DNA of 64,000 nt, taken from IMG/VR virus record IMGVR_UViG_3300033153_011579, one strand, 5' to 3'. This stretch comes from a virus. Taxonomy: Duplodnaviria; Heunggongvirae; Uroviricota; Caudoviricetes. Positions within the stretch are counted from its first letter, which is position 1. Each line of letters begins with the position of its first letter. The position numbers and the translations under genes were made by a program. Below are positions 17,597-50,994 of this stretch, one piece after another. Under the pieces are notes generated by a model that had not been told where the DNA came from, did no database searches, and saw nothing but the letters and a program-made list of their open reading frames with translations.

Positions 17597-18598
17597 CTAA
17601 AAAGGCGTCTTCCGCTCTGCTGCAGCCCTGATCATACCGTCTATCTCGCTCTTCAGCCACTCTCGCTCTCGCTCGGTCGGCTCCCGCCCCTTCACGCGGC
17701 CCGTGAACCACCCCAAATCGGCCTCCCAGTCGTACTCGTCGGCGAACACCCGGACCACCTGCAGCATCCGGTCTTTTACGTGCGCTCGAGTCAACCTCCC
17801 GCGGGAGATCGGCGCAGGCTTCTCCAGCGTCGCCATCAGCCCGCTAGCGGGTATGTATTCCTCGGACTCGTCCGGCTCGTCCTCTGAGGCCTCGTCGGGC
17901 TCGAGAGGCTCAGAATCGCCCTGAGGGGCGCTAGCGCCCTCTTTACATTGTTCACTAACACTGGAATCGGCGTTGACCGCGTTGATCAGGACAACGTGAT
18001 CGTCCAGCTTGTGCCAGAACGCTTGGACGAGTCCAGAGCACATCGCCTCGTCGAGCTTCTCGTCGTCCTCTTGCAGGCCGGACATCATGACCCGCCGAGT
18101 GTCAGGGTAGGTCGCCTCGATCTCACTCAGCAGACCGAGACCAGACATCCCAGGCATCTCGAAGTCGGTGATGACCACGTCGAACGTCCCGAGCTTGTTG
18201 ATGAGCATGATCGCCTGACTCGCCGAGCTCGCCTGGGTCGTCTCCCAGTCTTTGGGGAGAAGCCGGCAGACCGTCCGCCGCATGATGTCCTCGTCGTCGA
18301 CCACGAGGATGCGCAGGCGTCTCTTCGACGTCCTGGCTTCCGGAGGGTTGGTCCAGGCCCGGCACTCGCGAGCGAGGTTGACGTTCCCAACGCGCTCGGA
18401 GGTCGCGTAGACCGTCTCGATCACGGACTGCCAGAGGCCGCTGCAGGACTCGGGAGGTCCCCAGATCTCCTTCGGCCCAGCTCCCTCGATGGAGCTCAGC
18501 AGCCGGCCCTTGATCGTCGGGTCGAACAGCCCCTCTTTGAGAAACTGCATCGCGACCTCGCGAAGCTCGGGGTCCAGTGGTCGTCTAGATTTTGTCAT
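17597..18598 (-). CDS. Response-regulator receiver (CheY-like) protein with an unknown N-terminal domain and an acidic C-terminal tail
   Basis: ILVVDDEDIM…VVITDFEMPGMSG…RVMMSG receiver signature; motif C immediately upstream of ATG. Confidence 0.7.
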   Translation of the reverse strand: MTKSRRPLDPELREVAMQFLKEGLFDPTIKGRLLSSIEGAGPKEIWGPPESCSGLWQSVIETVYATSERVGNVNLARECRAWTNPPEARTSKRRLRILVVDDEDIMRRTVCRLLPKDWETTQASSASQAIMLINKLGTFDVVITDFEMPGMSGLGLLSEIEATYPDTRRVMMSGLQEDDEKLDEAMCSGLVQAFWHKLDDHVVLINAVNADSSVSEQCKEGASAPQGDSEPLEPDEASEDEPDESEEYIPASGLMATLEKPAPISRGRLTRAHVKDRMLQVVRVFADEYDWEADLGWFTGRVKGREPTEREREWLKSEIDGMIRAAAERKTPF

Positions 18599-22826: not shown

Positions 22827-23472
22827 CTTCGTCCACCTTCGTGAAGGTTGTTGCCCAGACCCACGGGTTGACGGCCCAACCGAGCCCGCGGGAGAAGTTG
22901 ATCTGGTCCCACAGTATCGCAAACCAGGCGCGCGGGCTATCGTAACTCTTCTCCCAGTCTGGTGGACAGCCCTCGGCGAGGGCGTCCTCGTCGGTGATGA
23001 CGTCGACCCGCTCGAGCCGGATCTTCTTTATGTCGAGGTCGAGTCTCGAATAGATCCGCTTCATGAACAGCGAGGTGGTCCATGGCCCATCGAATTCCGG
23101 GTCGGTCGCGCGCCAGTAGACGCCAGCTCCACCACCGATACTCCAGTGATAAAAGCATTCTTTGACCCAGTAGTGGTCGCCCGAATCCATCCTCGAATAG
23201 ATCCGGTGGCTGGTCCCTTCGAGACCCCACTCATCGTCGGGGCCGATATACGGGAGGTGCAGGTACGGGCCGCCGTTCCCGGCTGGCGAAGGTCCGCCGT
23301 CGGCGTGTGCGTTGTCCCAATCCCAGAGCTCTCGAGGCTTGAGGTGTTTGTACCACGGGCCGCCATCGAAGTAGGAGTTGATGTTCGTGACGACTCGGCG
23401 CGTCTGCGTCTTCCTGCCGGCGATGATCTGCCTGACCATCTCGTCCTTGAAGAGTATCGGTCGCTCGATCAT
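22819..23472 (-). CDS. ASCH-domain protein
   Basis: MIERPILFKDEMVRQIIAGRKTQTRRV typical ASCH N-terminus; ATGA overlap with upstream gene. Confidence 0.5.
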   Translation of the reverse strand: MIERPILFKDEMVRQIIAGRKTQTRRVVTNINSYFDGGPWYKHLKPRELWDWDNAHADGGPSPAGNGGPYLHLPYIGPDDEWGLEGTSHRIYSRMDSGDHYWVKECFYHWSIGGGAGVYWRATDPEFDGPWTTSLFMKRIYSRLDLDIKKIRLERVDVITDEDALAEGCPPDWEKSYDSPRAWFAILWDQINFSRGLGWAVNPWVWATTFTKVDEDG

Positions 23473-24215
23473 TTTGGAAAATCCTGAGGCCACGGATACT
23501 GCGGGGCCTGCTTGATGAGATTGTCCTTGACAAACACCGGAATATGATGGTCGAGGCACCAGAGACGGATATTCCAGGCCGTCTCTGCCGGGCATTCGAA
23601 CGCGTGCGGCCCAGTCATAGCACCGATTACTACCCAGCCGAGTCCGTCGAGGATCTTCGGGTTGAAGTTCTTCTCGACGAGCGGCTCGAGGCTGATCCAG
23701 TGGATGCCGGCCCTGGTCTCGGCGAGGTCATAGAGGCGATCGTCGGCCTCCCTGTCGTTCGTGGCGCTGACTCCCAGGTGGAGGTTATCGGGCCAGTCGC
23801 CGACGGCGAAGTTCAGCGGCCGCTTCGTCAGCATCAAAAACGTGTGCTGCGGCAGGGCGGTGATGGATTCGAGTATCTTTCGCTGGAGACCGGTCGTGTT
23901 GATCGCCACTTCCTTGGGATCGCCGGTCACTACCCAGCTCTGTGGAGACTCGACGCAGCAGAGGTCGGACATCGACCCGAGGAAGACGCGCTTCGTTTTT
24001 TTAGAACGCGAGAGTTTTGCGAATTCCCTCTCCCAGACGTCCAGGTGGACGGCGGGTGTGAAGGGGGCTAACCCCCTTTGTTTTAATCTCCAGTAAGCTG
24101 TTCCCTTCTTTCCTCCCAGTCTCGCCGCGAAGCGTCGCGCGTAGCAGTATTTACAACCGTTCGTGCAGCCGGTGAACGGGTTTATCGAAATATCGCACCA
24201 TTCGATCTTCGACAT
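23469..24215 (-). CDS. DUF5131 (phage Gp37/Gp68 family) radical-SAM-like protein
   Basis: MSKIEWCDISINPFTGCTNGCKYCYA with a CxxxCxxC cluster; start moved to 24215. Confidence 0.6.
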   Translation of the reverse strand: MSKIEWCDISINPFTGCTNGCKYCYARRFAARLGGKKGTAYWRLKQRGLAPFTPAVHLDVWEREFAKLSRSKKTKRVFLGSMSDLCCVESPQSWVVTGDPKEVAINTTGLQRKILESITALPQHTFLMLTKRPLNFAVGDWPDNLHLGVSATNDREADDRLYDLAETRAGIHWISLEPLVEKNFNPKILDGLGWVVIGAMTGPHAFECPAETAWNIRLWCLDHHIPVFVKDNLIKQAPQYPWPQDFPK

Positions 24216-24217
24216 CG

Positions 24218-24652
24218 CTACAGCCTTTCCACGACGGCCGCCATGAGGTCGATGACGGTGTCTCCGAGGTCGTCGATCTGAGTTTTGATCTTTTTGAATT
24301 TCTTTTTGAACGTGTTCGCCGAATCTTCGATGTAGCCGACCCGCGACTTGAGCCGATCGATTTTCTTCTCGATATTGCGGTCTCGCCTCTTGGAAGTCTC
24401 GTCGGCCCGCATGACCTGCTCTCGAAAATTCTGGTAGGCCGGACAGTCCGCCCAGCACTCCGGGCTCATTTTTTGCGATTGGGCCCGAGCTCTCGCTATG
24501 TCTTCGCCCGTCTTCTGTAGCGCCAGCTCGAGAGCGTGGTACCTCCCGAGCAGTACCGACTGCCACTGGAAGAGGAAGAACGACCGGTTCAGAGGCGGCA
24601 TTTTCTTCCACTCGTCGAGTTGGATCTCGGTCAGGTTGAGTTTGAAATCCAT
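24218..24652 (-). CDS. Coiled-coil protein (144 aa)
   Basis: ORF. Confidence 0.5.
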   Translation of the reverse strand: MDFKLNLTEIQLDEWKKMPPLNRSFFLFQWQSVLLGRYHALELALQKTGEDIARARAQSQKMSPECWADCPAYQNFREQVMRADETSKRRDRNIEKKIDRLKSRVGYIEDSANTFKKKFKKIKTQIDDLGDTVIDLMAAVVERL

Positions 24653-26062: not shown

Positions 26063-26266
26063 TCAATCCTCCCTCGTATATTTGTCTAAGAGCGCCTGCT
26101 GCTCCTTGGTGAGTTCTTCTCCGATCTGGGTCAGCATGACGACGTGCCAGAACTCGCACATCTCCCGCTGGGCGTCGTCGCACATTATTTGGAACTCGTC
26201 GGTGATCGTCTCGCCTTCTTCGAGCGGCGGCGCTTTGATCTCGACGGTCCAGGTGATCTCAGTCAC
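26063..26266 (-). CDS. Small acidic all-alpha protein, possible minimal MazG-like fold
   Basis: LEEGETITDEF…QREMCEFWHVVMLTQIGEELTKEQQALLDKY loosely matches the ExxE…ExxE helices of MazG; weak. Confidence 0.25.
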   Translation of the reverse strand: MTEITWTVEIKAPPLEEGETITDEFQIMCDDAQREMCEFWHVVMLTQIGEELTKEQQALLDKYTRED

Positions 26267-27368
26267 GGATCACCTCGACGATCCCTTTGGCAGTTGGTGA
26301 CAAGCTCGCGAGGACCGCATCGGCTCCGGTGACCTCCCTGATGTGCGCCAGGAACTTTGCGTCGTCGTCCATCTTCAAGATCTCGCCGCCGTCGAAGAAC
26401 CGAAAGTCGTCGTTGATGAGGTCGAGGCACGTGACGGCCAGCTCCGGGGTTTTCGTCATGATGTAGTCGTCTTTGTAGATGGCGTAGCTGAGCAGGTCGA
26501 GATCCAGGAGGGTCTTCCTAAATGTTCCCTGGGGGCCGTCGTCCGGGTTCTGCTCGTGTGGATTGTCCTTGATGTTGCAGGGGACGATGTCGCTCATCGG
26601 ACCTTTCCCATGCCGCGTCTGGTAAGCGCGGGTGACGAGCACGATCTCCGGCTCGTATCCCATCTCGCAAATATTTTTCGACCCGGTGTTCGTCGGAGTG
26701 ACGTATGGAAAAAAACCAAAATTCTGGTCGAGCAGCAGGCCTTGCGACCCTTCCCAGATAACCGTTTCGAACGAATCGATGACCTGCTCGTTCGACATCC
26801 CGATGGCCGCGTTGTGTGTCACCTCGTCGCACGCGACGAAGAAATTTTGGATGATGTAGTCGTCCGGTCTGAAGCCGTAGTATTGATAAAACTGCTCCAT
26901 CTTCATCCGCATTATTCTCGGGTGGAACAGGTCTTCGAACAGCAGGTGATGACCCTCCCGCTCTCTTTTGACGGTCGCGAAGATTCCGACCTCACAGCTG
27001 CCGCCGAAATCGGAATTCCGCTTATTCCACTCGATTTCAAACGGCGTGGTGACCGGGCACCTGTGGTCGACGAGGAGTCGTGGGAAGACTTTTTTCACCA
27101 GCAAGACGTCGAGCTCGTTCATGAGGGCGACGGGGTTGACCGAGCAGTATTTCGACCAGAAGGTCGGGACGCCTCGGAACGACCCGCTACCGAAATGAGA
27201 AAATACGTGAGACCTACCGTCCTCGAGCACCACCTGATGCGCGGCCTGGTGGCCGCCCGAGAACCGCACCACGAGCTCGGCCTTGTTGACGTCACAGAGG
27301 TAGTCGACCAGATGTCCTTTCCCCTCGTCCCCAAAGCCGAGCCCGATGACAGCGATGTGCTTGGTCAC
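26259..27368 (-). CDS. purZ?: Adenylosuccinate-synthetase-family enzyme (PurA homologue; candidate PurZ/PurZ0)
   Basis: N-terminal MTKHIAVIGLGFGDEGKGHLVDYL…VVRFSGGHQAAHQV matches the PurA P-loop and GGHNAGH signatures. It is 369 aa versus about 430 for bacterial PurA. Confidence 0.7.
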   Translation of the reverse strand: MTKHIAVIGLGFGDEGKGHLVDYLCDVNKAELVVRFSGGHQAAHQVVLEDGRSHVFSHFGSGSFRGVPTFWSKYCSVNPVALMNELDVLLVKKVFPRLLVDHRCPVTTPFEIEWNKRNSDFGGSCEVGIFATVKREREGHHLLFEDLFHPRIMRMKMEQFYQYYGFRPDDYIIQNFFVACDEVTHNAAIGMSNEQVIDSFETVIWEGSQGLLLDQNFGFFPYVTPTNTGSKNICEMGYEPEIVLVTRAYQTRHGKGPMSDIVPCNIKDNPHEQNPDDGPQGTFRKTLLDLDLLSYAIYKDDYIMTKTPELAVTCLDLINDDFRFFDGGEILKMDDDAKFLAHIREVTGADAVLASLSPTAKGIVEVIRD

Positions 27369-29478: not shown

Positions 29479-30102
29479 TCAAAAGCTCTTCCTACCGGTC
29501 AGCTTCGTGACCAGTTTTCCAATTTCGTCTGGCGTGGGCGCGTCGGGATCCGCCTCGGTCGACCCGGGCAAGAGGTGGGCGTCCTGCGCCGGCCGCAGAC
29601 TCGGGCACAGCACCTGTGCTGCTCCTGCCGTGAGCCGCCCCTTGTCGACCGCGGCCTTGATGGTTGACTCGCGCGAGCTGACGTCGTGCCCCAGGCTGAC
29701 CAGCCACGCGGGCTTCTCGCTCGAGTCTCGCCGGCTCGCGATCTTCTTCCTGTAGATTTCCAAAAACGCAACGCGGGCCGCCACGCGGTCGGTCATCTGG
29801 CGCACCGCCTCGAACGCCTCGGCGATCTCCTGCGTCCAGACGGTCGTGTCGTGCTCGGAGTGCGGGCAGAGGGCCCAGGCCTCTTGTGGGTCCGGCCAGC
29901 CGGTGTCCACCCGCTCGAGGATCGCAGCGAGGGTGAGACGACGGCTCAACTCCCGCCGGCACCGACGAAGCGCGTGCAGCACGACGTCGTCCGGATACAA
30001 GGACAATTCCTCGACCATCTCGGCTGTCGCCGCCTCGGAGAGCTCGGTCGCGCAGATCTCGGCGGTGACCGCCAAGGCGATCACGAGATTACTCTTCTTC
30101 AT
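29479..30102 (-). CDS. Hypothetical protein downstream of rep (about 207 aa)
   Basis: Start chosen at MKKSNLVIALAV…; start uncertain. Confidence 0.4.
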   Translation of the reverse strand: MKKSNLVIALAVTAEICATELSEAATAEMVEELSLYPDDVVLHALRRCRRELSRRLTLAAILERVDTGWPDPQEAWALCPHSEHDTTVWTQEIAEAFEAVRQMTDRVAARVAFLEIYRKKIASRRDSSEKPAWLVSLGHDVSSRESTIKAAVDKGRLTAGAAQVLCPSLRPAQDAHLLPGSTEADPDAPTPDEIGKLVTKLTGRKSF

Positions 30103-31111
30103 CTTCTTCAGCTTTGTATTTGTCGCGGAGTTTTCTCGCGACGTCCCCCGTGGTCGCCCGGCGGTCCGACGCACGCGCCGCGCCGTCGGTTATCTGTGAC
30201 CCGGTGGCCCACTCGGTCCTCACGGTCTCGGCGTCGACGAGCAGGGTGGGGAGGGCGTGGCCCTTCTTCACGTACCAGCCCTTGTTCATCGAGACGTAGT
30301 GCGCAACGACCTGCTCGGCGTCGGCGGCACCCAGGCGCTCGATGATGCGCCTTATGGCCGTGTTGGCCAGCGCGTTGCGCACAGGCGGAGTGCCGTACCG
30401 GAGCTTATAGGCGGCCGAATAGGCCTCCCAAACTCTCCCTGCTATCACCAGCCTCTCCTCCTTCGGCTTCGCCTTCGGTTTTTTCCTAGCTTCAGGTTTT
30501 TTCTCAACCGGGGTCACGGGCGCTTGCGCGCGTGAAGGATCCGGATCTCTCCCGTCGGGTTCCCCTCCGGGATCCCTTTCTGGATCTGGATCTGCCTCTG
30601 ATCTCTGCCTCTGCTTCTGCCTCTGCCTCTGCATGGCGTTACTATCGTTACTGGGCGTTACAGGGGGGTTACTAGGTGTTACATCAGCGTTACCAAGCGT
30701 TACATCAGCGTTACCATTACCTTTTTCATCCTCTTTTTTCCTCTCCCTGTACCTCCTTACCCTCTCAGCGGTTTTTTCTCGCCTATCGTCCGCCGAGCAC
30801 AGCTGCCGGTACTTCTCGCTGTTCAGCACCTTCCAGCCGCCGTCCACCGGGGCGATCCGCCGGCCCTCGTAATCCGGGGTCCTCGAGTGCTCGTCTGGAC
30901 TCATCAGCCGCTCGAGAGCTTCTTTGCAAAGGTCGAGGTCCACCCGCGCCTCGTGGGAGAGGCCGGGGACGCTCGCGCTCACGATCCCGTCTCTGTCCAT
31001 CAGCGCGAGCATCGTGATCCACACCAACCGGACGTGGTCCTCTTCGCAAACCCAGATCGACGACTGGAGAATCGAACTGTGCAACTTCGTAAAACCTCTG
31101 GTCATGGACAC
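30089..31111 (-). CDS. Putative replication initiator / replisome-organizer-like protein carrying internal iterons
   Basis: N-terminus FTKLHSSILQSSIWVCEEDHVRLVWITMLALMDRDGIV resembles phage replication-initiator N-domains. The basic linker is encoded by the GTTAC iteron array. Confidence 0.5.
   Translation of the reverse strand: MSMTRGFTKLHSSILQSSIWVCEEDHVRLVWITMLALMDRDGIVSASVPGLSHEARVDLDLCKEALERLMSPDEHSRTPDYEGRRIAPVDGGWKVLNSEKYRQLCSADDRREKTAERVRRYRERKKEDEKGNGNADVTLGNADVTPSNPPVTPSNDSNAMQRQRQKQRQRSEADPDPERDPGGEPDGRDPDPSRAQAPVTPVEKKPEARKKPKAKPKEERLVIAGRVWEAYSAAYKLRYGTPPVRNALANTAIRRIIERLGAADAEQVVAHYVSMNKGWYVKKGHALPTLLVDAETVRTEWATGSQITDGAARASDRRATTGDVARKLRDKYKAEEDEEE
30636..30716. repeat. Iteron array: 8 x GTTAC at 9-11 bp spacing inside the rep gene (candidate origin)
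   Basis: GTTAC starts at 30638, 30647, 30657, 30668, 30678, 30689, 30699 and 30710 (mean spacing about 10.3 bp). Flanked by a (CTGCCT)n tract. Confidence 0.7.
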
Positions 31112-31130
31112 CAGTGTCCTTTCTTGAACT

Positions 31131-31382
31131 TCAGCTTTCAGATCCGTAGGTGTCTTTCATGTATTGACGAAGCAACGTCTCGAGCTTCCCGAGCTCCCGC
31201 TTCGACGTCGTTACCGCCGCCGGCCAGTTTGACCAGAACTCCTTTAGCTCCTCGAAGAGCAGCACACTCGCCGGCGACCCCCGGTTCACGATGCGCAGCA
31301 GCACGGTCAAAATTCGCAGGTTTGTTTTCGTCAGCATGGCCTTGAACGCCATCGCCGTATCGATCTTGTCCATGAACCCCAT
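31131..31382 (-). CDS. Hypothetical protein (83 aa)
   Basis: ORF. Confidence 0.45.
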   Translation of the reverse strand: MGFMDKIDTAMAFKAMLTKTNLRILTVLLRIVNRGSPASVLLFEELKEFWSNWPAAVTTSKRELGKLETLLRQYMKDTYGSES

Positions 31383-31390
31383 GCGTCACC

Positions 31391-31651
31391 TCACCCTACC
31401 GGCCGCTTGGATCCGGTATCTCCGTAAATACTGATCGACGGCATGATGATCACCGACCAGTTCTGCCGGTAGTCGATCCCACCATCGCGCCACTTGTACT
31501 GAAAACCCCACGCCACATTCGGGCTGTTGAGCATCTCGGCCTGCATCGACTCGTTGTCGATCAGCGCGGCCATCGTCTGATGCGGCCCGAACCTCCCGAC
31601 CAGCTCGTCGACCAGCGGCTGGAGCTCAGCGTCCTTCGTTGCCAACCCCAT
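31391..31651 (-). CDS. Hypothetical protein (86 aa)
   Basis: ORF. Confidence 0.5.
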   Translation of the reverse strand: MGLATKDAELQPLVDELVGRFGPHQTMAALIDNESMQAEMLNSPNVAWGFQYKWRDGGIDYRQNWSVIIMPSISIYGDTGSKRPVG

Positions 31652-31833
31652 CAGGAGACCTCCCCACCGAGGGTTTTGACCTTGCCCTCGATCAGGATGA
31701 TCCTCTTCGCCTGCTTCTCGTTGACCTTCTTGTACTCGCGGATCGCGGTGTCCCGCTGGTCGACCTGCTCCTTGAGGTTGGCGATCTTCTCGCGCTGGTT
31801 TTTTGCAAGCTTCTCTCTCGTGTTCATCGACAT
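31651..31833 (-). CDS. Small coiled-coil protein (60 aa)
   Basis: Start region GAGGAGGACTGAGATGTCGA duplicated at the next gene. Confidence 0.5.
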   Translation of the reverse strand: MSMNTREKLAKNQREKIANLKEQVDQRDTAIREYKKVNEKQAKRIILIEGKVKTLGGEVS

Positions 31834-37780: not shown

Positions 37781-38246
37781 TTTGGCATCGCCGCGTCAGG
37801 GTGCTCTGGCCGATCTTCTCTCCACTGGAGAGTTACTCCCGATGGTCCTGGTCGCCCTCGGCCTGGCGATCGTCATCACGTGCACCAGGGCCGGCTACCC
37901 GCTCCGCTTCCTGTGGTGCATGCTCTTCAACTTCCGCTTCACCAGGTGGCTCTGGAACCTCGTGCTCTGCCCTCACTGCTGCTCGTTCTGGACCGGCTTC
38001 GCCGTTGGGTATGCGGTCACGGGTGACTGGATAAAAACCATACAGATCGCCGTCACGGCGTGCGGCGTCATGTACGTGCTCCAGAAGACTTTCTCACGAG
38101 ACCGCATTGTCGCCGCCGACCGTGTCCACGGCGACAGGTGGGTCTTGGATGTTCGCGGCGTAGCGTTTGAACCCCCTGAGGATTTCGAAGAGATCCTCGG
38201 TATAAAAAACGGTTTGAAGGAGACTCCAGATGACGAAGATGGGTAA
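37773..38246 (+). CDS. Polytopic membrane protein (157 aa, probable TTG start)
   Basis: SD AAAAGGAG 7 nt upstream of TTG; three hydrophobic helices. Confidence 0.5.
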   Translation: MINLASPRQGALADLLSTGELLPMVLVALGLAIVITCTRAGYPLRFLWCMLFNFRFTRWLWNLVLCPHCCSFWTGFAVGYAVTGDWIKTIQIAVTACGVMYVLQKTFSRDRIVAADRVHGDRWVLDVRGVAFEPPEDFEEILGIKNGLKETPDDEDG

Positions 38247-40275
38247 ACAACTCGGGGAAGCACTCGAAAAGAGCTTCGACAGAACCATCAGGGATTTCAG
38301 AACCGAGAGCCGGTCCACCGGCACCACGGGCCTCGATGCGCTCGAGCAGCTCGGGAGGGAGTTCGAAACCGTCAGCGTCAACATACATAGGAAAAACGAG
38401 CACGGTAAGTACACCCTGTTCTCTCCACTCGAGGGCGTGGCCGTCGCCGACCTCCTGCAGCAGGGGTACGACGTCTTTTGCAAGAACGAGGGCGGCGAGG
38501 GCGACTACAAGGTGGAGGTTGTCATCCCGGCGAAGGAGCCGGGGAAGCCACCCGTCCGTCGCTGGGAGGGGCCGTTCATCGTGAGCGGCACGCCGCGGCT
38601 CGAGGTCTCCAAGACCGAGATGTCCAAGCAACAGAACAGTTTCGGATTTCCGTTCAACATGATGAGCGGCCTCCCCGCGAACACCGCCGCCGCCGGCAAC
38701 CAGGGAGGAGCTCCCTACGTCCGCGACCTGCTCCAGCAGATGAACAAGTCCTCCGAGAGCCAGAACAACATGGTGCAGCAGATGATGGGCCTCATGATGA
38801 TGAAGGACATGATGCCCGGCGCGGACCAGAAGAAGAACGGCGAGACCGACGCCAATAACCCGGCCGTGCTCGCGCTCCAGACCCAGGTCAGCGAGGTGAC
38901 CCGACGGCTCGACGACGAGCGCCGACGGTCGGAGGACGACCGCCGATCTCGAGATCAGGAAAAGCGTATCGAGGCCGCCGAGCGACGCGCCGAGGAGAAC
39001 CACCGAGAGGTACTCCGCCTGCTCGACAACAACAAGACCACCGAGACCATCGAGCTCATGAAGCTCCAGCGCGACGGCCAGGGCTCCAAGGACGACTCGT
39101 TCCTCAAGCTGATGGCCATGAACCGTGAGGATTCCAACCAGTCCCAGGCGCGGTTCGACGGGCTCATGATGAAGCTGTTCGACAAGCCAGACGGCGTCGA
39201 CCAGAGCTCGAAGGTCATGGGCATGATGATGGAGTCGTCCGTCGCCCAGCTCAACATGATGACCCAGATCGCCGCGAGCGGTCTCGCCGGAGGTTCCGAA
39301 AACCCGTGGATCGACCTCGTCCGCGAAGGGGTCGGCACGGTCAAGGAAGGTTTCAAGGGCGTCCTCGCCATGAAGTACGGCATCGACATGGACGGCGACG
39401 ACGAGGACGGCGAAGATGGCGAAGAGGCCCCGGCCCCCCTCACCCAGCACGTCCCGCCGGCGAAGATCGAAGCGCGGACCGACCCGGAGACCGGAGAGGC
39501 GGTACCGGAAGAAGCACAGACCACCGTCGACCAGCCGGCTCCAGAAGAAGACACCGAGGACGAAATCCCGCAGAGCGCGCTCGACGACGCCGACGAGCTC
39601 AAAAAATACATCCTCACCGACGACGAGCTCACGGGGCTCGCGCAAAACCGGCAGACGCAAAAAATCCTCAAGGCCGTCGAGGAGAAGGACTATCCGCAGG
39701 CCACCGCCCGGATCTTCGAGCGCGTCCGTGGCAAGTCGCCCGTCCACAAGCGCTGGCTCAAAGCCCCCGGCCCGCTCACCGCGCAGATCCTCACGCACTT
39801 CGGGCTCACGCACCACATGTTCGCGATGACCCAGAACCTGATCGACTTCATCGGCCATATGAACGGCGGTGGAAATCCGAACGACTGGTCCGAGAACTAC
39901 AAGCCGGTCAAGGAAAAGAAGGAGAGCAAGATGAAACCCGACAACCCCGCAGCCACCGAGCTGGGCGTGACCATGGGCGAGCGCAAGGAAGGCGAGGACT
40001 ACGACGCGTCGAAGGTTCCCGACGATCCCAAGCTGGCCGAGCTGGCCGAGCAGCAGCGAGCTCTGCGCGAAGAGAAGAACGTGCTCGACCAGATGGAGCA
40101 GATCGAAGAGAACATCGGGTTGCTCAAGGAAGGGAAGATCGACCCGCAGCGCGCGGCGTTCCTGCGCACGGAGAAGAAGCTCCCGGCGTCCGGAGAAGAG
40201 GACGAGGCGCTCAAGGAGATCGCAAAGCTGCGGCACGACATAAAGAAGCAGCAGGCCGAGGAGGGGAGGGCTTAA
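38230..40275 (+). CDS. Large acidic, Met-rich, coiled-coil protein (681 aa)
   Basis: Protein-like composition, Met-rich blocks MMGLMMMKDMMPG and MGMMMESSVAQLNMMTQ, long acidic linker. The antisense 722-aa ORF has artefact composition. Confidence 0.7.
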   Translation: MTKMGKQLGEALEKSFDRTIRDFRTESRSTGTTGLDALEQLGREFETVSVNIHRKNEHGKYTLFSPLEGVAVADLLQQGYDVFCKNEGGEGDYKVEVVIPAKEPGKPPVRRWEGPFIVSGTPRLEVSKTEMSKQQNSFGFPFNMMSGLPANTAAAGNQGGAPYVRDLLQQMNKSSESQNNMVQQMMGLMMMKDMMPGADQKKNGETDANNPAVLALQTQVSEVTRRLDDERRRSEDDRRSRDQEKRIEAAERRAEENHREVLRLLDNNKTTETIELMKLQRDGQGSKDDSFLKLMAMNREDSNQSQARFDGLMMKLFDKPDGVDQSSKVMGMMMESSVAQLNMMTQIAASGLAGGSENPWIDLVREGVGTVKEGFKGVLAMKYGIDMDGDDEDGEDGEEAPAPLTQHVPPAKIEARTDPETGEAVPEEAQTTVDQPAPEEDTEDEIPQSALDDADELKKYILTDDELTGLAQNRQTQKILKAVEEKDYPQATARIFERVRGKSPVHKRWLKAPGPLTAQILTHFGLTHHMFAMTQNLIDFIGHMNGGGNPNDWSENYKPVKEKKESKMKPDNPAATELGVTMGERKEGEDYDASKVPDDPKLAELAEQQRALREEKNVLDQMEQIEENIGLLKEGKIDPQRAAFLRTEKKLPASGEEDEALKEIAKLRHDIKKQQAEEGRA

Positions 40276-40511
40276 TGGTCAACCACCAGGACCTGATGAA
40301 GCAGGCCGAGGCCATCTTCATCTTCTTCGAGCGAGAGGTGGAAAAATACGAGCGCGACCAGGGCGCACAGATGCTGACCGACAAGCCCACCAGAGAGGTG
40401 TGTCGGAAGACGCTGGTCGCCGCCGGGAACTACATCGCGAGAGCTATCGACGACCTCACCAAGATCGACGAGCACGAAGAGCTGCAGAAGAAGCAGCATC
40501 AGGAAGGGTAA
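40275..40511 (+). CDS. Hypothetical protein (78 aa)
   Basis: TAATG overlap; real part of the Arg-rich 39306..40511 ORF. Confidence 0.5.
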   Translation: MVNHQDLMKQAEAIFIFFEREVEKYERDQGAQMLTDKPTREVCRKTLVAAGNYIARAIDDLTKIDEHEELQKKQHQEG

Positions 40512-40512
40512 A

Positions 40513-40872
40513 ATGAAAGTCATCATCCACCCGCTTGGCGAGCGCGTACTCGTCGAGCCGTTCGACCTCGAAGGGGCGACCGCCGCCGGCGTCATCATCC
40601 CGCTCTCCAAGGGCTCCCACAAGCTCGGGAAGATAGTCGCCGTCGGCGACGACCTCGAGCCGTTGTGTGAAGAGACCGAAGCGGAGAGCGAGCTCGACGA
40701 CGACGAGGAGCTCGACCCCGTGAGCTCTTGGGGCCCCCCCCCTGTCGCGGTCGGCGACAGCATCATCTACAACCGCTTCCTCCCGCTCATCCTCCCCACC
40801 GATGATTCGAAAATCGAGAAGCACATGGTTGCGCTCGAGGACATCCAGGGCCGGGTCGAGATCGAAAAGTGA
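40513..40872 (+). CDS. groES-like: GroES-like co-chaperonin (Hsp10 family) with an acidic insert
   Basis: IHPLGERVLVEPFDLEGATAAGVIIPLS…KIVAVGDD…VAVGDSIIYN…IEKHMVALEDI matches the GroES pattern (PLgDRVLV…T.gGI.iP…G.VvAvG). Confidence 0.6.
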   Translation: MKVIIHPLGERVLVEPFDLEGATAAGVIIPLSKGSHKLGKIVAVGDDLEPLCEETEAESELDDDEELDPVSSWGPPPVAVGDSIIYNRFLPLILPTDDSKIEKHMVALEDIQGRVEIEK

Positions 40873-40874
40873 AC

Positions 40875-41207
40875 ATGTTCGAAAAACCGGTGGTCGTCGG
40901 GCCGCTGAGAGAGGAAGAGAAAATGTCAGCAGATAGAACCATCGACGCGGGGAAGGCGCGAGAGGCTGCCAAGGAGATCGGGGGACTCTTCTACGAGACC
41001 AAGGTGCAGACCAAGAAGCAGGCACGTGAGGTCGCACTCAGGATGGCCGATATGCCGATCGACTGGCACGGTATCATCGAGATCGTCGAGGACGGCCTCT
41101 TCGTGCACCACGGCTCACTCGAGACGGTAAAGTTGCTCCAGATTGCCGAGGGTGCCTGGACCGACCAGACGCTGGCCCTCACGTTTGTCGGCAAGCTGTT
41201 CGACTGA
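40875..41207 (+). CDS. Hypothetical protein (110 aa)
   Basis: ATG 40875 just after the GroES-like stop. Confidence 0.5.
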   Translation: MFEKPVVVGPLREEEKMSADRTIDAGKAREAAKEIGGLFYETKVQTKKQAREVALRMADMPIDWHGIIEIVEDGLFVHHGSLETVKLLQIAEGAWTDQTLALTFVGKLFD

Positions 41208-41299
41208 TCCTCAGCGAAAAACACCAATTCACGAAAAAAAAGAAGTCGTCCCAACACCCTGATAATCATGGGCAAACTCCTTAACAAGCCCATGTGTGC

Positions 41300-41348
41300 A
41301 AAAAAACACACTTGACTACAATGTGAGATATAGATTACACCAACACAC
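41300..41348 (+). promoter_or_regulatory. AT-rich intergenic patch with a TTGACT box upstream of the transglutaminase-like gene
   Basis: TTGACTACAATGTGAGATATAGATTACACC; the -10 assignment is ambiguous. Confidence 0.25.
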
Positions 41349-41951
41349 ATGAACCCAGAGGTGCATCGTGGGGTCACGAGCATCAAGCAACGACTCGACC
41401 TGATAGCACAAAGGATCGATGTCAGCGTTCGTAGACCCCAGAAATCCTTAGACGGACGGCAGTTCATGCTCAAGGATTTCACTCACTTCATCGTTCGCGG
41501 TACCCCACAACACGGCCCAGCATCAGAAGAAGAGCCCATCAACGCGGTGTTCAGCTACGTGAAAAACAACATCGAGTACCGCCAGGATCCGACGGGCTAC
41601 GACTACTACATGGGTGCCGGGCGCATCATCAACTCCAAGGCCGGCGACTGCGACGACCTCACCATCATCATCTGCGCGATGCTCGACAGCATCGGCTACC
41701 GCACTGGAGCTCGGGTGATCTCTCCCGACGGGCACCAGTGGCACATCTACTCGCTCGCCGGGGTCGACCCTGCGTTCAACGGGGAGCCCTCGAGAGTCGT
41801 ACCGCTCGACGCTGCCTACGGTGACGAGCCCGGCTGGGAGCCGTCGAACAGATTTCGAAAGTACGAGCAGCAATGCACCTTCTTTAAGGGCAAGGTCGTT
41901 GGCTACAAGGTCGTCCGGGACGGCGGGTCCTGGTTCAATTTTTTCAGGTAG
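41349..41951 (+). CDS. Transglutaminase-like cysteine-protease-fold protein
   Basis: GDCDDLTIIICAMLDSIGYRTGARVI (G.C.D…G.pAR core) followed by His (GHQWHIY) and Asp. Confidence 0.5.
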   Translation: MNPEVHRGVTSIKQRLDLIAQRIDVSVRRPQKSLDGRQFMLKDFTHFIVRGTPQHGPASEEEPINAVFSYVKNNIEYRQDPTGYDYYMGAGRIINSKAGDCDDLTIIICAMLDSIGYRTGARVISPDGHQWHIYSLAGVDPAFNGEPSRVVPLDAAYGDEPGWEPSNRFRKYEQQCTFFKGKVVGYKVVRDGGSWFNFFR

Positions 41952-41961
41952 GAGGGTACCA

Positions 41962-42927
41962 ATGGCCGTCAGGAATCCCAGTCTCGCCGCGCAGAACATG
42001 CCGCCCGAGTTTCGTTTCAAACCGACCAAAATCTATTACGACAAGCCGCCACGGAACACCGTCTACGAGGACGCCCTGGGGTCCGGTGGGAAAGCCCCGA
42101 TCGACCCGCGCCTCCAGCGGCTGCTCGACCCGATCACCTGGAAGTCCGACCGCTCGCCGGTCGCCAACATGCAGCAGAGCGCGCACGGCGTGATCTCGAA
42201 ACTCATCCACGAACACAAGCACTCGCAGACCCCCCGCACCATCATCCGCAAGAACGTCCCGAAGATAACGATCAACACGAGGCACGAAGAGCAGCCCGGA
42301 GCTCGCCAGCCGCTCATGCGCGGCAACCGCACCCCGCAGCAGGTGGCGCGCGGTGTGAAGACCACGCACAGGCCCGTCAGGCCGGGTCCGGACATCAACA
42401 AGATCAACGCCATCCTCGACCCACGGCGTGGCTTCAAGCCCGGGTCGGCCGAGGCGTACCGCAACCTCCTGATGCAGGCCACCCCGGAGTCGGTCGAGCA
42501 GATCGCCGCGAAGGCGGAGCGCGCTGCAGAAAAGCGCGAGGAGCCCACGACGTCCATCGGCAGTCACCAGTTCACCGACGCGGAGCTCCAGGCGGCCCCC
42601 CCCGGTCTGATCAAGGTGATGGTCGACCGCGAACTTCAACGACGCACCAAGAAGAACAAGCCGCGCGTGATGTTCGACCCGAGAGAATCTCGCGGTCTGT
42701 CGACACACGGGCAGTACACCACCATCCCGCGACCTGGTCTCGTCGAGTTCGAGCCCGGGAAGTTCATGCGGCCCGAGCAGCTCGGCATGACGGCAAACGA
42801 AGCGGTGGTCGCGATGGATTCCAACGGTCAGCCGAAGCCGAAGGTCGGCGGCGGGTCGATCCTCCTCGGCCTCGGTGCCGCGGCTCTCGCGATCCTCGGC
42901 CTCTCGATGGTAGTGGGTGGGAGATAG
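41962..42927 (+). CDS. Virion-region protein with a C-terminal TM (321 aa)
   Basis: SD GGTAGGAGGGTACCA-ATG; C-terminus ILLGLGAAALAILGLSMVVGG. Confidence 0.55.
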   Translation: MAVRNPSLAAQNMPPEFRFKPTKIYYDKPPRNTVYEDALGSGGKAPIDPRLQRLLDPITWKSDRSPVANMQQSAHGVISKLIHEHKHSQTPRTIIRKNVPKITINTRHEEQPGARQPLMRGNRTPQQVARGVKTTHRPVRPGPDINKINAILDPRRGFKPGSAEAYRNLLMQATPESVEQIAAKAERAAEKREEPTTSIGSHQFTDAELQAAPPGLIKVMVDRELQRRTKKNKPRVMFDPRESRGLSTHGQYTTIPRPGLVEFEPGKFMRPEQLGMTANEAVVAMDSNGQPKPKVGGGSILLGLGAAALAILGLSMVVGGR

Positions 42928-42928
42928 C

Positions 42929-43279
42929 GTGGGCGACGTCATCACACTGGACGGCCTCGACTCCACGACACTCTCCGGCACGAAGTGCGGGAAGCTCGTG
43001 TCGATCAACGCTCCGATGCTCGGGCAGAGCGTCCAGGTGTGCGAAACTGACGTCAGCCGCATGGCAGGCCTCGCGGGCGTCAAGCGCCGTCCTGGCCGCC
43101 CCAAGAACACCACCGTCAAGAACGGAGCGCGCAAGCCCCGGTTCAAGGGCTGCGGCTCTACCAAGGTAGTGAAGACCAAAAAAGGGAAGAAGATCTGTAA
43201 GTGTGCAGATCGTGGAAACGGGCAGATCCTGCCCCATAAATCCTGTGGGTTGGGAAAGCCCACGAAAAGGAGTCGATGA
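42929..43279 (+). CDS. Basic Cys-containing protein (GTG start)
   Basis: ORF; KR-rich. Confidence 0.4.
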   Translation: MGDVITLDGLDSTTLSGTKCGKLVSINAPMLGQSVQVCETDVSRMAGLAGVKRRPGRPKNTTVKNGARKPRFKGCGSTKVVKTKKGKKICKCADRGNGQILPHKSCGLGKPTKRSR

Positions 43280-43398
43280 TGGCCAGACGGAAGAAGAAGA
43301 AGGGTATCCGCACTGCTTCGGGTCGCTGCCGGTTCGGCAAGGTCAAGAAGGGCCGCCGGAAGGGCGCTTGCCTCAAGTCCAAGCGCGCCCGCAAGTAG
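43276..43398 (+). CDS. Poly-basic peptide (40 aa), not in ORF track
   Basis: SD AAGGAG 4 nt upstream; MMARRKKKKGIRTASGRCRFGKVKKGRRKGACLKSKRARK*. Confidence 0.5.
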   Translation: MMARRKKKKGIRTASGRCRFGKVKKGRRKGACLKSKRARK

Positions 43399-43471
43399 CC
43401 TTCGCCTGCTCTTTTAGCGGGCGGAACACACCGCAGCAGGCGAGTGATCCGCCCTGCGGAAGGAGGAGAAC

Positions 43472-43582
43472 ATGAAGAAGGGTACGTGCAAGCAGAACAA
43501 GAACAAACGCGGAGCCAAATGGGTCTGCCGGTCGAAGAAAACCGGCAGGGTCAAATTCTCCAAAACAAAGCTCTACAAGTGA
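43472..43582 (+). CDS. Poly-basic peptide (36 aa), not in ORF track
   Basis: SD GGAAGGAGGAGAAC-ATG; MKKGTCKQNKNKRGAKWVCRSKKTGRVKFSKTKLYK*. Confidence 0.5.
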   Translation: MKKGTCKQNKNKRGAKWVCRSKKTGRVKFSKTKLYK

Positions 43583-43590
43583 GCTCAACG

Positions 43591-44154
43591 ATGACGGGGT
43601 TTCCCGTCGAGGAGGACCAGAAGATGCGAAAGCGCAGCGATGACGCGGTCTCCGGCAGGGGACCACAGGACGACCAGTTCGTGGAAAAAAACGACGACAC
43701 CGACGTTGGTGCCTACACCATCGAGCCTCTGGCGGGAGTAATGGGCCTCGGGGCCAAAGACTTCCTTCCGCCCGCGGCCGGTGGCCTCGGCTACTTCGTC
43801 GCAACGTGGCTGGTGAACCGCTTCGGCGGGAACATCTCCGGCTACCTGACCCGGTTCGCTCCTCTCGTGGGCGGAGTGCTCGGGGCCTTGCTCAACGGCG
43901 TGGCCTTGCCCTTCGTCGCCAAGGGAAACGGGAAGAAGATGGTGGCGCAAGCCGCCGCCACTTCGCTGACCATGGGGATCATGTCCCAGATCCTCCGCGA
44001 GACCTCTGGCCTCGGAGCAGTCGTCATCGACCGGATCGCAGGAGCCGGTCCGATGGGTGCGCTCCCCGGCCCGACAGTCCACGGCGCAGGGACGATGCCC
44101 AGGCAGATCCGACAGACACTCGACAAGAGCGTCTATGGAAACTCGTGGGGCTAG
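43591..44154 (+). CDS. Gly/Ala-rich putative virion protein (187 aa)
   Basis: ORF, hydrophobic Gly-rich core. Confidence 0.5.
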   Translation: MTGFPVEEDQKMRKRSDDAVSGRGPQDDQFVEKNDDTDVGAYTIEPLAGVMGLGAKDFLPPAAGGLGYFVATWLVNRFGGNISGYLTRFAPLVGGVLGALLNGVALPFVAKGNGKKMVAQAAATSLTMGIMSQILRETSGLGAVVIDRIAGAGPMGALPGPTVHGAGTMPRQIRQTLDKSVYGNSWG

Positions 44155-44218
44155 GCCCCGCAAAACCCGTTAGGTCGATCGCTGAAAAGCACGCCTGACA
44201 CAGAGGAGAAAACAAGCC

Positions 44219-44929
44219 ATGGCCGTCAACACAATCGAATTGCCTTCGGGCGAGATCTTCACCATCGCCGATTGGGGCGATTTCCCGCTGTACTCGCGCG
44301 CCCAGATCGCTCCCGGCAACGCGCAGGACGTGATTGTTTTCAATTACGTCGAAGCCCAGCCGATCCCGGGCGGCGGTGTCGCCGCGGCGCTGTCAACGCT
44401 GATTGACAGCAATCTCGAGCAGGACTCCGCACTGCCCATCGACGAGCAGATGATCGTCTTCTCCGTCCAGATCCGTTTCGACGAAGCGGACTCGGATGCA
44501 GCCGGCCTGGTGACGCAGGCGGACAGCGGTGCAGAGGGCATGATCAAGTGGCTCAACATCACGCACAACACGTATTTCGAGCTGACGGTGACGAGCCAGA
44601 AGCCTCGGGTACAGGGCGTGATCACCGAGTTCCCGATCGGTGGTGGGTTGTACTGGCAGCAGTCCCGTGACACCGGCGCGACCGTGGCCGGCTACACGCC
44701 GACGCCGATGCCGTACGACAACAACGTGGCCTACGAGGTCATCAACGGGTTCCCGACCGCCGAAGCGGCTCGCCGCCTCGCGCTGCCGGTCCACATCCCG
44801 ACGATGCAGACCTTCAAGGGCCGCTTCCGGTGGCCGCGTGGTGCGCTGCCCGCCGGCGGTATCAGCCCGGTGACGGACTTCGGTCTGACCGTGTTCCTCT
44901 ACGGACCGCGTCAGCGCCAGGTCGACTAG
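44219..44929 (+). CDS. Putative virion structural protein (236 aa)
   Basis: SD GAGGAGAAAACAAGCC-ATG; beta-rich composition. Confidence 0.55.
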   Translation: MAVNTIELPSGEIFTIADWGDFPLYSRAQIAPGNAQDVIVFNYVEAQPIPGGGVAAALSTLIDSNLEQDSALPIDEQMIVFSVQIRFDEADSDAAGLVTQADSGAEGMIKWLNITHNTYFELTVTSQKPRVQGVITEFPIGGGLYWQQSRDTGATVAGYTPTPMPYDNNVAYEVINGFPTAEAARRLALPVHIPTMQTFKGRFRWPRGALPAGGISPVTDFGLTVFLYGPRQRQVD

Positions 44930-45008
44930 CCGAGCGATCCTACCTATTCACCACTCCCCGAGCCGACCGGCTCGGGGAGTTCCGAGGTGGTAGGATCAGG
45001 AGGCTGGT

Positions 45009-45911
45009 ATGACGGAAAAATTCTTCTCCCCGCGCTGGTTGCACCAGTCCGTAGAGATCGGTGCCACCAGCCACCGGCCAGTTCCCTCGGCGTTCTTCGC
45101 GAACAACGAGGTTTGGAATTGGCATCTGGTGTATCTCGCGATCGTCGGCACTGCCGCGCTCGACGAGGCGGGGAACTACTCGCACGCGCTGGGCGGCGTG
45201 GCCAGGCGCTTGCGCCTGAATATCGGCATGTCGCAGATGGGCGACATCAACGTCGTGCCGTCCAACGGTCACGCGATGTTCGGTCCTAACGAGTCGTACC
45301 TCGTGCACTCGAACGACTTGAACATCGGCGCGGCCCTGCGGTTCGACCCGAAGTATCCTTACCAGCTTCCTCCCGACACGGGCATCGCCGCGCGCGTCAG
45401 GAACGACAACCTGACCTACAACATCGACAACCTCGGCTGTTTGTTCATGGGGTTCGACGAGCCGGCAGGGTTCGGCGAAGGCCCGCGCAACCCGGTCCAC
45501 ATCGGAGCTCGCGCGATCGAGGAGCTGCAGCCCGGCGGCGACTTCACGTTCGACGACGCCGATTTGTTCAACGACGGAGAGCACCCGGCGACCTTGACCG
45601 ACATGGTTTTACAAGGGTTCGCTCTCAATGAGCAGAATGTTTCGAACAACACATGGGACCAGGTCTCCTGGCTCCTGAACCCGAGCACCGGGCCCGAGTG
45701 GATGCCGAACGACCAGCCGATCCCGGTCGGCTGCCTCTGCCCGTTCAACCGCGGCATCCTCGACGCTAACGACGTCGGACCTCGAGCGTACGTCTTCCCG
45801 GAAGAGACGATCATGAAGCCGCGCCAGCGGATCTCGATCGAAGCGTTCAACTACTCGGCGTCGGAGCAGATCTTCGAAGTCTGCCTGTTCGGATATTTGG
45901 AGGTGGCATGA
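45009..45911 (+). CDS. Putative virion structural protein (300 aa)
   Basis: ORF, SD AGGAGG. Confidence 0.6.
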   Translation: MTEKFFSPRWLHQSVEIGATSHRPVPSAFFANNEVWNWHLVYLAIVGTAALDEAGNYSHALGGVARRLRLNIGMSQMGDINVVPSNGHAMFGPNESYLVHSNDLNIGAALRFDPKYPYQLPPDTGIAARVRNDNLTYNIDNLGCLFMGFDEPAGFGEGPRNPVHIGARAIEELQPGGDFTFDDADLFNDGEHPATLTDMVLQGFALNEQNVSNNTWDQVSWLLNPSTGPEWMPNDQPIPVGCLCPFNRGILDANDVGPRAYVFPEETIMKPRQRISIEAFNYSASEQIFEVCLFGYLEVA

Positions 45912-47660: not shown

Positions 47661-47945
47661 ATGCTGAAGGGCATTCCGCTGCGCGCCATCGCCACCGTCA
47701 TCGCCGGGCCGTTCCCCTCCGCGACCACAGTCGAGGTGGTGTCGACCACGATGTACGACGACCACCGGGAGGGGTCGATGTGCTGGGTCAGCGACGAGGG
47801 GGCAGCCAACTGCCGTGTTGGGCACGGCTTCCCGCTCGAGCCGGGCACCAAGGTCGAGGTCGAGCTCGCCTCCGGCCAGGAGTTGTACGCGATCACGCAG
47901 TCGATCGCTCGGCTCGGAGTTTCGGTAAAGGGAACGCGATGGTGA
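47661..47945 (+). CDS. Hypothetical protein (94 aa)
   Basis: ORF. Confidence 0.5.
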   Translation: MLKGIPLRAIATVIAGPFPSATTVEVVSTTMYDDHREGSMCWVSDEGAANCRVGHGFPLEPGTKVEVELASGQELYAITQSIARLGVSVKGTRW

Positions 47946-50988: not shown

Positions 50989-50994
50989 GGAAAG

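Follow-up and report, generated by a model that had tools for sequence, protein, structure and literature searches.

Where does replication begin in the phage genome represented by IMG/VR record IMGVR_UViG_3300033153_011579, a 64,000-nucleotide stretch of caudoviricete DNA (hereinafter, the window, at its full length), and can that place be recognized from the sequence itself? The question is raised by eight copies of a short word, GTTAC on the plus strand and GTAAC on the minus strand, that recur about once per helical turn inside a minus-strand gene for a putative O-like replication initiator. Judging from the sequence, we put at roughly 70% the probability that this array consists of the iterons of the initiator in whose gene it lies and functions as the origin of the phage, the binding of the protein and the origin activity both being predictions. 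In its best reading, the locus is an origin of the lambda O type lodged within the gene for its initiator, a new architectural variant of a kind of system that is already known.

The phased array and the gene that contains it

The array lies within positions 30636-30716 (GCGTTACtatcGTTACtgggcGTTACagggggGTTACtaggtGTTACatcagcGTTACcaagcGTTACatcagcGTTACca on the plus strand), with the GTTAC copies starting at 30638, 30647, 30657, 30668, 30678, 30689, 30699 and 30710, that is, at successive distances of 9, 10, 11, 10, 11, 10 and 11 bp. Counted on both strands of the window, the pentamer occurs 47 times against 47.75 expected, and because this count is at the chance level, the anomaly lies in the cluster. 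With the plus-strand frequency of the pentamer in the rest of the window, one would expect 0.024 copies per 77 nt, which gives a Poisson probability of 2.8e-18 for at least eight and, once multiplied by all positions in the window, a probability of about 2e-13 for the clustering. The true repeat unit is longer than the pentamer, namely, the heptamer GTAACGC, which is present in exact form on the minus strand in five of the eight copies and nowhere else in the 64 kb.

The repeated entity is a DNA word rather than a peptide because it switches back and forth between two codon phases: as read on the coding strand, the eight copies of GTAAC fall in phases 1, 0, 1, 0, 1, 0, 1 and 1 and are read alternately as xGT-AAC (Gly/Ser-Asn) and as GTA-ACx (Val-Thr). 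Tandem Repeats Finder (TRF) reports periods of 10, 11 and 21 at 30635-30716, and the last of these therefore represents two copies of a single 10.5-nt unit. Because 21 bp amounts to 7 codons as well as to two helical turns, the alternation of 10- and 11-bp spacing along the array is the only way to maintain the helical phase and the reading frame together. The array is, on this reading of the codon phases, under selection at the level of DNA, not of the peptide.

The same kind of cluster was not found a second time: a search of the window for another (oriR-like) group of GTAACGC copies recovered none, and a GTTAC pair at 20587/20608 was rejected as a further array, being outside any GTAACGC context. 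A search of the iterons for dyads or hairpins returned just two weak inverted repeats, neither of which matches the iterons, and no RNA element in Rfam matched positions 29500-31700 at E<=1.

The features of the initiator gene and of the gene that follows it are these:

30089-31111, minus strand: O-like replication-initiator gene, 340 aa, recognized through phrog_2447, phrog_11527 and tblastn matches of the C-terminal domain
30821-31111, minus strand: segment for the predicted N-terminal winged-helix domain, residues ~1-97, strongly conserved across the family
30719-30820, minus strand: segment for the predicted long basic alpha-helix, residues 98-131, ending in ...DDRREKTAERVRRYRERKKEDEKGN, directly 5' of the iterons
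30636-30714, minus strand: iteron array, eight GTAAC(GC) on the coding strand, encoding residues ~133-158 (GNADVTLGNADVTPSNPPVTPSNDSNA)
30591-30632, minus strand: period-6 tract, (GCAGAG/GCAGAA)n in the coding sense and (TCTGCC)n on the plus strand, 6.8 copies by TRF, product QRQRQKQRQ
30095-30463, minus strand: segment for the helical C-terminal domain, residues 217-339, common to O-type initiators of cultured phages
29479-30102, minus strand: 'P-position' gene with its ATG at 30102, overlapping the initiator gene by 14 nt; matches phrog_6028 at 6.7e-43

The probable true start of the initiator gene is the ATG at 31105. An AlphaFold2 model of the protein, derived from an alignment of 120 sequences (mean pLDDT 80.7), comprises a compact N-terminal domain, with helices at residues 25-37, 48-55 and 59-70 and a beta-hairpin at 86-95, and then a single long helix at 98-131 (pLDDT 86-93). 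The low-confidence segment that comes next in the model, residues 132-155 (pLDDT about 57), is exactly the peptide encoded by the iterons, so that the iteron-coded residues 133-158 are predicted to fall between the folded N-terminal part, up to residue 131, and the C-terminal domain at 217-339. A further predicted helix, 156-172, is the product of the period-6 tract (QRQRQKQRQRS) and is followed by more disordered chain. The sequence-only reading, in which eight GTTAC pentamers at 9-11 bp intervals were placed in the linker-coding part of a rep-like gene, is borne out by the mapped positions and by the disordered linker in the model. The same goes for the (CTGCCT)n tract that was said to precede the array immediately: this is the period-6 element detected by TRF as TCTGCC, which directly adjoins the iterons and lies 3' of them in the coding sense.

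Scans of the initiator with Pfam and NCBIfam left it unrecognized, the only Pfam match at E<=1 being a spurious one to SRP-alpha_N, and PHROGs gave matches to phrog_11527 (unknown function, C-terminal domain) at 5e-18 and to phrog_2447 ('replication initiation protein') at 1.2e-5. When compared by tblastn with 50,697 deposited phage records, the N-terminal domain had no match and the C-terminal domain alone did: residues 227-335 show 38-49% identity to genes annotated as 'replication initiation protein (O)', including those of Ralstonia phages Gerry, Claudette and Gervaise, Pseudomonas phage LESphi3, and others. A megablast search with 24 kb of the sequence for close relatives among cultured phages found none. 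Weak Pfam matches were obtained for some of 120 relatives of the initiator, namely, to HTH_36 for 17 (best E 3e-4) and to Phage_rep_org_N (PF09681) for 5 (best E 0.036); the initiator of the window itself has no PF09681 match and, judging by these profile comparisons, is at best a remote relative of HTH_36/Phage_rep_org_N.

By BLASTP, the product of the P-position gene shares 40% identity (E 4e-33) with the protein encoded next to O in LESphi3, on its downstream side, and 44% (E 2e-46) with the equivalent protein of Gerry. The 14-nt overlap between the two genes is identical in the window (30089-30102), LESphi3 (2838-2851 of locus L125) and Gerry (2859-2872 of locus L124), which suggests conserved translational coupling of an O/P-like pair. 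The gene order in LESphi3, cI - cro - ant - O - hypothetical (P') - ninG - Q, is the lambdoid layout; in the P0072 branch, a gene for a DnaB-type helicase starts 3 nt after the initiator gene, and in locus L121 (P0003), which has a C-terminal domain of the window type, genes for SSB, which binds single-stranded DNA, and for an ERF recombinase are nearby. That the pair consists of an O-type initiator and its P-position partner is well supported, the basis being homology, synteny and the annotations of others.

Arrays and tracts across the family

The initiator belongs to a large family. A protein search recovered 915 relatives, and a HMMER scan with residues 1-131 identified 10,748 representatives of 50%-identity clusters at E<=1e-3, and 7,249 at 1e-10; none of the first 120 relatives carries a precomputed Pfam domain. 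At least 344 related loci are present in IMG/VR, and 40 were obtained from bacterial assemblies, mostly metagenome-assembled genomes (MAGs) of Verrucomicrobiota, Acidobacteriota, Gemmatimonadota, Planctomycetota and Proteobacteria; some of these 40 are prophages, given the length of their contigs, 0.3-1.3 Mb. The hosts of the family, as phages or prophages, appear to be Verrucomicrobiota, Acidobacteriota and further phyla with few cultured members, and within the limits of the literature searched, we found the family to be undescribed.

Arrays were sought in the relatives as the longest chain of one 5-mer at 8-13-bp spacing, 30-300 nt after the conserved GGWxLLNxxKY motif. Among the 80 IMG/VR relatives scanned (35-57% identity), 62 (~78%) contain a chain of at least four copies, compared with 20 of the 1,384 control windows taken from those loci (~1.4%), and the phased-array pattern of the IMG/VR loci recurs in the 40 loci of bacterial origin (genomes and MAGs). 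The position of the array is conserved, its start being 67-99 nt past the motif in relatives and 94 nt past it in the window. The commonest pattern in the family consists of six GTAAC copies at distances of 11, 10, 11, 10 and 11, and the maximum is ten copies. In 185 sites from 32 non-redundant loci, GTAAC is followed by G in 98% and then by C in 74%, and the spacers carry 0.1-0.3 bits.

The word itself varies between relatives. In the same place, GTAAC is replaced by other phased words, namely, GTAGAC, GTCACG, GTCAAC(A), GTGGAC(A), GTTGACA, GTCAGC, GTCGAAG, GTGACG, ATGTCCC, GCGCAC and CTAACGC; more than 12 different iteron words occupy one fixed position in the family, and most of them start with GT when written on the appropriate strand. 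Seven loci (L002, L007, L012, L066, L103, L054 and L072) carry arrays that are turned around or mix the two orientations, yet leave the open reading frame (ORF) intact; in L103, iterons of the TGTCCC type and the period-6 tract are both inverted relative to L076 (see below), again with the ORF preserved. Taken together, these comparisons show what one would expect of origin iterons splitting into specificity types, as in lambdoid phages, and they are hard to fit to action at the protein level.

The period-6 tract shows a comparable independence of the protein. Runs of three or more CAGAnn units, located 60-330 nt past the motif, are present in 61 of the 104 non-redundant loci, against a single tract in the remaining 689 kb of DNA of these loci. 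The usual translations are (Ala-Glu)n and (Asp-Thr)n, with QRQRQ in the window and KQKQKQ in L102, and tracts on the opposite strand are translated as PLPLPL (L072), SVSVSV (L025 and L040) and ASASAS (L103). In the (AE)n tracts, all 128 of the 128 Ala codons are GCA, compared with 23% GCA elsewhere in those ORFs. Slippage of an ancestral unit could add to this codon uniformity, and the stronger argument is, therefore, the change of frame and strand: the tract is kept in three reading frames and in both orientations. This means that the (CAGAnn)n tract is conserved as DNA. Its role is a matter of speculation: the DNA might melt there or the helicase be loaded, the conserved winged helix might bind to it, or it might serve for priming. 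In the complement of (CAGAnn)n, CTG, the recognition (priming) trinucleotide of the DnaG primase of Escherichia coli, recurs at intervals of 6 nt.

Cassette exchange and the putative reader helix

Which part of the initiator would read the iterons? A pair of IMG/VR contigs, 3300027734_000641 (L019) and 3300032247_000312 (L076), bears directly on this question. The two are ~90% identical in DNA along their entire 8-kb loci, their winged helices agree at every one of the 92 residues compared, and their translations are identical through 'KYREMASR', but L019 has ten GTAACGC iterons and L076 has seven ATGTCCC iterons. In the pairwise alignment, a non-homologous block with sharp borders, of ~150-165 nt (4302-4465 in L019 versus 4302-4447 in L076), extends from the codon after '...KYREMASR' to just before the shared period-6 tract 'LHIAEADTEADTD'. 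This block, which contains about 22 codons of the basic helix together with the iterons, is the sole non-homologous DNA in the ~8 kb compared, and the helix exchanged with it is EDSQEKNRDRQRRFREKDERNG in L019 and DEQREAEADRKRRYREQRERNA in L076. Because both winged helices are identical, the winged helix cannot set the recognized word in these two phages, and its recognition helix is ruled out as the determinant of specificity for the pair. The comparison points to the basic helix, rather than the winged helix, as the putative specificity reader. The L019/L076 pair amounts to a specificity-swap experiment performed by nature. Another pair, L071/L078, was considered as a second clean swap of the cassette and rejected, being too diverged overall.

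Covariation within the family runs in the same direction. For 60 non-redundant loci, identity over 16 residues of the helix (107-122 in the window protein) predicts whether two loci belong to the same iteron class with an area under the curve (AUC) of 0.857, against 0.789 for the winged helix, and when GTAACG-GTAACG pairs are excluded, the AUC is 0.986 for the helix versus 0.672 for the winged helix. Helices of the GTAACGC class share A113, N/T/S114, A115, R117, Q/V118, R120, H/F/Y121 and R122, where the window has K-T-A-E-R-V-R-R-Y-R. A tyrosine or phenylalanine at 113 goes with iterons ending in GACA, AACA or GAAG in 13 of 13 cases, compared with 2 of 43 without it (Fisher p 6e-11, uncorrected for relatedness). 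A second set, made up of 80 loci close to L019, shows the helix 'REAEAxRKxRYR' repeatedly paired with (A/T)GTCC(C/G) iterons, in four backgrounds of the winged helix that interleave with the GTAACGC types. The discriminating positions, 113/114, 117 and 120/121, are 3-4 residues apart and occupy one face of a helix.

Several observations weigh on the other side. The correlation between helix and iterons is confounded by common descent as well as by linkage, fewer than 100 bp separating the two. In L047, a helix of the GTAACGC type is accompanied by GCGCAC iterons, a case that is reconcilable only if GCGCAC is read as the inverted related word GTGCGC. In L084, the array is composite, with four copies of GTAAC and then GTTGACA/GTAGACA, and the type of the helix matches the second set. 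All told, the notion that the basic helix reads the iterons strikes us, on these sequence comparisons, as a serious contender that falls just short of an even bet.

A wider proposition, to which we attach somewhat less credence still, is that the family carries a self-contained, horizontally exchangeable specificity cassette of ~170 bp, in which a bZIP-like helix mounted on a constant winged helix would be inherited together with the sites that it reads, placed directly downstream without a change of frame, and after which the frame-independent (CAGAnn)n may replace an AT-rich element for melting, helicase loading or priming. Should this be the case, one recombination event would produce a new orthogonal pair of initiator and origin, as the L019/L076 comparison seems to show.

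The resemblance to bZIP proteins is a lead only. The basic region of bZIP factors, such as GCN4, carries an N-x7-R signature and continues in register into the coiled coil of a leucine zipper. As in bZIP proteins, the helix in question is continuous and basic, and in many relatives of the GTAACGC class has a pattern of the N-x7-R type (for example, ANAERQRRHR); unlike in those proteins, it is followed by a disordered, iteron-coded linker without a leucine zipper, and in the window, the signature position is occupied by T, not N. A bZIP_2 match was obtained for one of the 120 relatives, a weak one at E 0.0075. Membership in the bZIP family was, accordingly, rejected, given that the basic helix leads into a disordered linker.

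The origin reading, its rivals and its setting

Under the origin reading, the array and the adjoining (CAGAnn)n tract would together form the origin, as in lambda O/ori-lambda and SPP1 gp38/oriL. Initiator protomers would bind successive GTAACGC sites, which, at a distance of 10.5 bp, lie on one face of the helix, and build a nucleoprotein filament, with the alternating 10/11 spacing reconciling helical phasing and reading frame. The sequence would be read mainly by the long basic helix (residues ~103-131) that extends from the winged helix and is encoded just upstream of the sites, and the conserved winged helix might provide non-specific or constant contacts, considering that most iteron classes share the 5' GT, or else mediate oligomerization. 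The C-terminal domain and the protein encoded by the overlapping P-position gene would recruit the replicative helicase.

Two systems offer precedents. In lambda, ori-lambda lies in gene O, with iterons and an AT-rich tract in mid-gene, and the number of iterons varies between phages, adding residues to O (PMC7466680). In SPP1, oriL lies in gene 38, the product of which, gp38, binds direct repeats within its own gene, and genes for the helicase loader and the helicase follow (PMC6316719). As in lambda O, as well as Stx phages and P22 gene 18, the putative origin described here is situated in the linker between the N-terminal origin-binding part and the C-terminal partner-binding domain, and as in lambdoid phages, the iteron sequence differs between phages, the number of repeats varies and the downstream partner gene overlaps. 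In contrast to lambda, where the iterons are imperfect inverted repeats of ~19 bp to which O binds as a dimer, with a pronounced AT-rich tract coming after them, the window has 7-bp direct repeats every 10.5 bp, without a dyad, followed by the (CAGAnn)n tract. With these repeats and no Phage_rep_O match, we rejected membership in the lambda O family proper. SPP1, for its part, differs in having a second copy of the origin (oriR) and an AT-rich unwinding element.

Among phages with a homologous C-terminal domain, the LESphi3 'replication initiation protein O' (P31_24, vB_Pae_LESphi3) and Gerry gp68 are likewise encoded by genes with a mid-gene array, consisting of about seven 17-nt units (ACCCCNGCAGNAAATGC; L125 2261-2411) in the former and three 18-nt units (AAGGGGAAGGGAATATGG; L124 2331-2384) in the latter; these arrays are probably the origins of the respective phages and seem to be unannotated in the records. 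They differ from the array in the window in that the N-terminal domains are unrelated by tblastn and the units are 17-18 nt long, as opposed to 7-bp words phased at 10.5 bp. The Rep proteins of iteron plasmids (RepA, pi, RepE, TrfA) contain two tandem winged helices and bind iterons of 17-22 bp that are located about two turns (~22 bp) apart, outside the rep gene. A plasmid Rep of this WH1-WH2 type was rejected for the window, where the model shows one winged helix and a basic helix, and the 7-bp sites lie one turn apart within the gene. From sequence, then, the architecture appears to differ from those of the known systems in its non-palindromic 7-bp direct repeats, one per turn, its likely basic-helix reader, its (CAGAnn)n partner and the lack of an obvious AT-rich unwinding element.

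With respect to the classical hallmarks of origins, two further features of the locus come into play:

30699-30740, no strand assigned: local AT-rich maximum, 65-68% AT, in the top ~1% of 40-mers (the window is 40.5% AT)
30538-30603, no strand assigned: GATC cluster, six sites in 66 nt, the densest 100 nt of the window, 3' (coding sense) of the period-6 tract

The former is the AT-richest interior 40-mer of the initiator gene, at the 5' edge of the array, and is a weak candidate for a DNA-unwinding element. Several of the clustered GATC sites read GGATC[CT], and GATC-bearing stretches encoding DPDP/GSES are found likewise in L001, L062 and L072. Enrichment of GATC as a signal of the Dam/SeqA type was rejected, GATC being just 1.2x expectation window-wide.

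Some of the evidence runs counter to the origin reading. The initiator lacks a detectable sequence match to Pfam Phage_rep_O, and a clear AT-rich unwinding element conserved beside the iterons was not found, the AT content in the family exceeding the mean of the locus by just 0.05-0.08. The cumulative GC skew has its maximum at ~16 kb and its minimum at ~45 kb, the places at which the genes change orientation. Near the array, inside a run of genes on the same strand, the GC skew itself steps from ~0 (22-30 kb) to about -0.15 (30.5-34 kb); in the cumulative curve, this is a change of slope without an extremum, and the sign of the step at 30.0-30.5 kb is opposite to the bacterial leading-strand rule. 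The AT skew also shifts near 31 kb. The step at ~30-30.5 kb could be caused by replication, expression level or mosaic ancestry. The sequence-only reading had proposed cumulative GC skew as a check, with switching elsewhere as part of its refutation; a change of slope near 30.0-30.5 kb is indeed seen, but the extremes lie elsewhere, at the orientation switches. Because the skew follows gene orientation, it is uninformative for the origin here, and switching elsewhere should, therefore, not count as a refutation. The proposal of an origin embedded in the initiator gene in the manner of lambda O has otherwise fared well, being strongly supported by comparisons of codon phases, the fixed place of the array, the variation of the motif and the O/P homology with LESphi3.

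The array might, alternatively, bind a protein at the DNA level in a role other than initiation. It might act on the initiator gene as a roadblock or an autoregulatory operator, serve in copy control or 'handcuffing', or be a centromere of the parC type, in which repeats phased at 10-11 bp are coated by a small DNA-binding protein. Short direct repeats phased on one face of the helix are typical of partition centromeres and of some operators, and the lack of a strong AT-rich unwinding element beside the array and a GC skew devoid of an origin signal favor such a role. We nevertheless consider it unlikely because hundreds of relatives have the array at one fixed place in the initiator gene, regardless of which C-terminal domain or neighbors they have, because the layout parallels those in lambda O and SPP1 gene 38, where the origins have been established by experiment, and because the related O genes of cultured phages also carry mid-gene arrays. 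Moreover, scans with PHROGs, Pfam and NCBIfam detected no gene of the ParA, ParM, ParR or ribbon-helix-helix type among 20 neighboring ORFs, a part of the window rather than all of it, and the parC/ParR-type centromere was rejected as a candidate for this reason.

Less probable again is that the sites are iterons read by a different protein, be it a host factor or another phage protein, instead of the product of their own gene. The identical winged helices of L019 and L076, combined with unrelated iterons, make a trans-acting factor a formal alternative to the basic helix; yet, the sole non-homologous DNA between these loci is the cassette, including ~22 codons of that helix, the type of the helix tracks the type of the iteron in many backgrounds, and a host factor leaves the existence of more than 12 words in phages from overlapping habitats unaccounted for. 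The least credible of the alternatives, by a long way, is a 7-residue linker repeat produced by replication slippage, with the DNA word having no function of its own. It would account for the 21-nt (7-codon) TRF period and for the location in a linker modeled as disordered, given that dipeptide and heptapeptide repeats are common in linkers, and slippage could partly be reflected in the neighboring period-6 tract as well. Against it, the 21-nt unit holds two 7-nt words in different codon phases, with a period of 10.5 nt that is no multiple of a codon; GTAACGC is invariant at 35-60% protein identity, with the spacer bases and the encoded residues varying freely; in some relatives, the word is found on the other strand, or in both orientations, and the ORF is kept; and others have different words with equal phasing.

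Elsewhere in the window, a minus-strand gene at 26259-27368 encodes a divergent homologue of adenylosuccinate synthetase (369 aa; Pfam Adenylsucc_synt, 1e-39), the best PHROG of which is phrog_1211 (1.2e-51), the PurZ family of phages with 2-aminoadenine 'Z-genomes'. The identification as PurZ was not confirmed, with the NCBIfam models for PurA and PurZ both far below their cut-offs; if it is PurZ, the DNA of the phage, including the iterons, might hold Z in place of A, which bears on the missing AT-rich unwinding element. On the plus strand, seven large ORFs of 300-681 aa at 38230-53571 have no match in PHROGs or Pfam and are presumably highly divergent structural or packaging genes, and recognizable genes beyond them are located at 56532-57872 (Laminin_G_3) and 59713-61014 (GP88). 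An integrase-like gene lies at the left end of the window (82-969, plus strand), and the minus strand encodes a protein with a response-regulator receiver domain (17597-18598) and, within the early-gene block, a DUF5131/radical-SAM-like protein (23469-24611).

Origins embedded in initiator genes are classical, yet known from just a handful of cultured phages. Here, the putative origin can be read straight from the sequence, and the family offers more than a dozen natural specificity variants and at least one clean cassette swap. The conserved (CAGAnn)n tract, along with the lack of an obvious AT-rich element, raises the question of how such origins melt. If the model is true, origins could be annotated in thousands of genomes of uncultivated phages, a protein-DNA recognition code, relating helix residues to a 7-bp word, would be derivable from natural covariation, and replicons for non-model bacteria could be engineered from a set of orthogonal pairs of initiators and origins.

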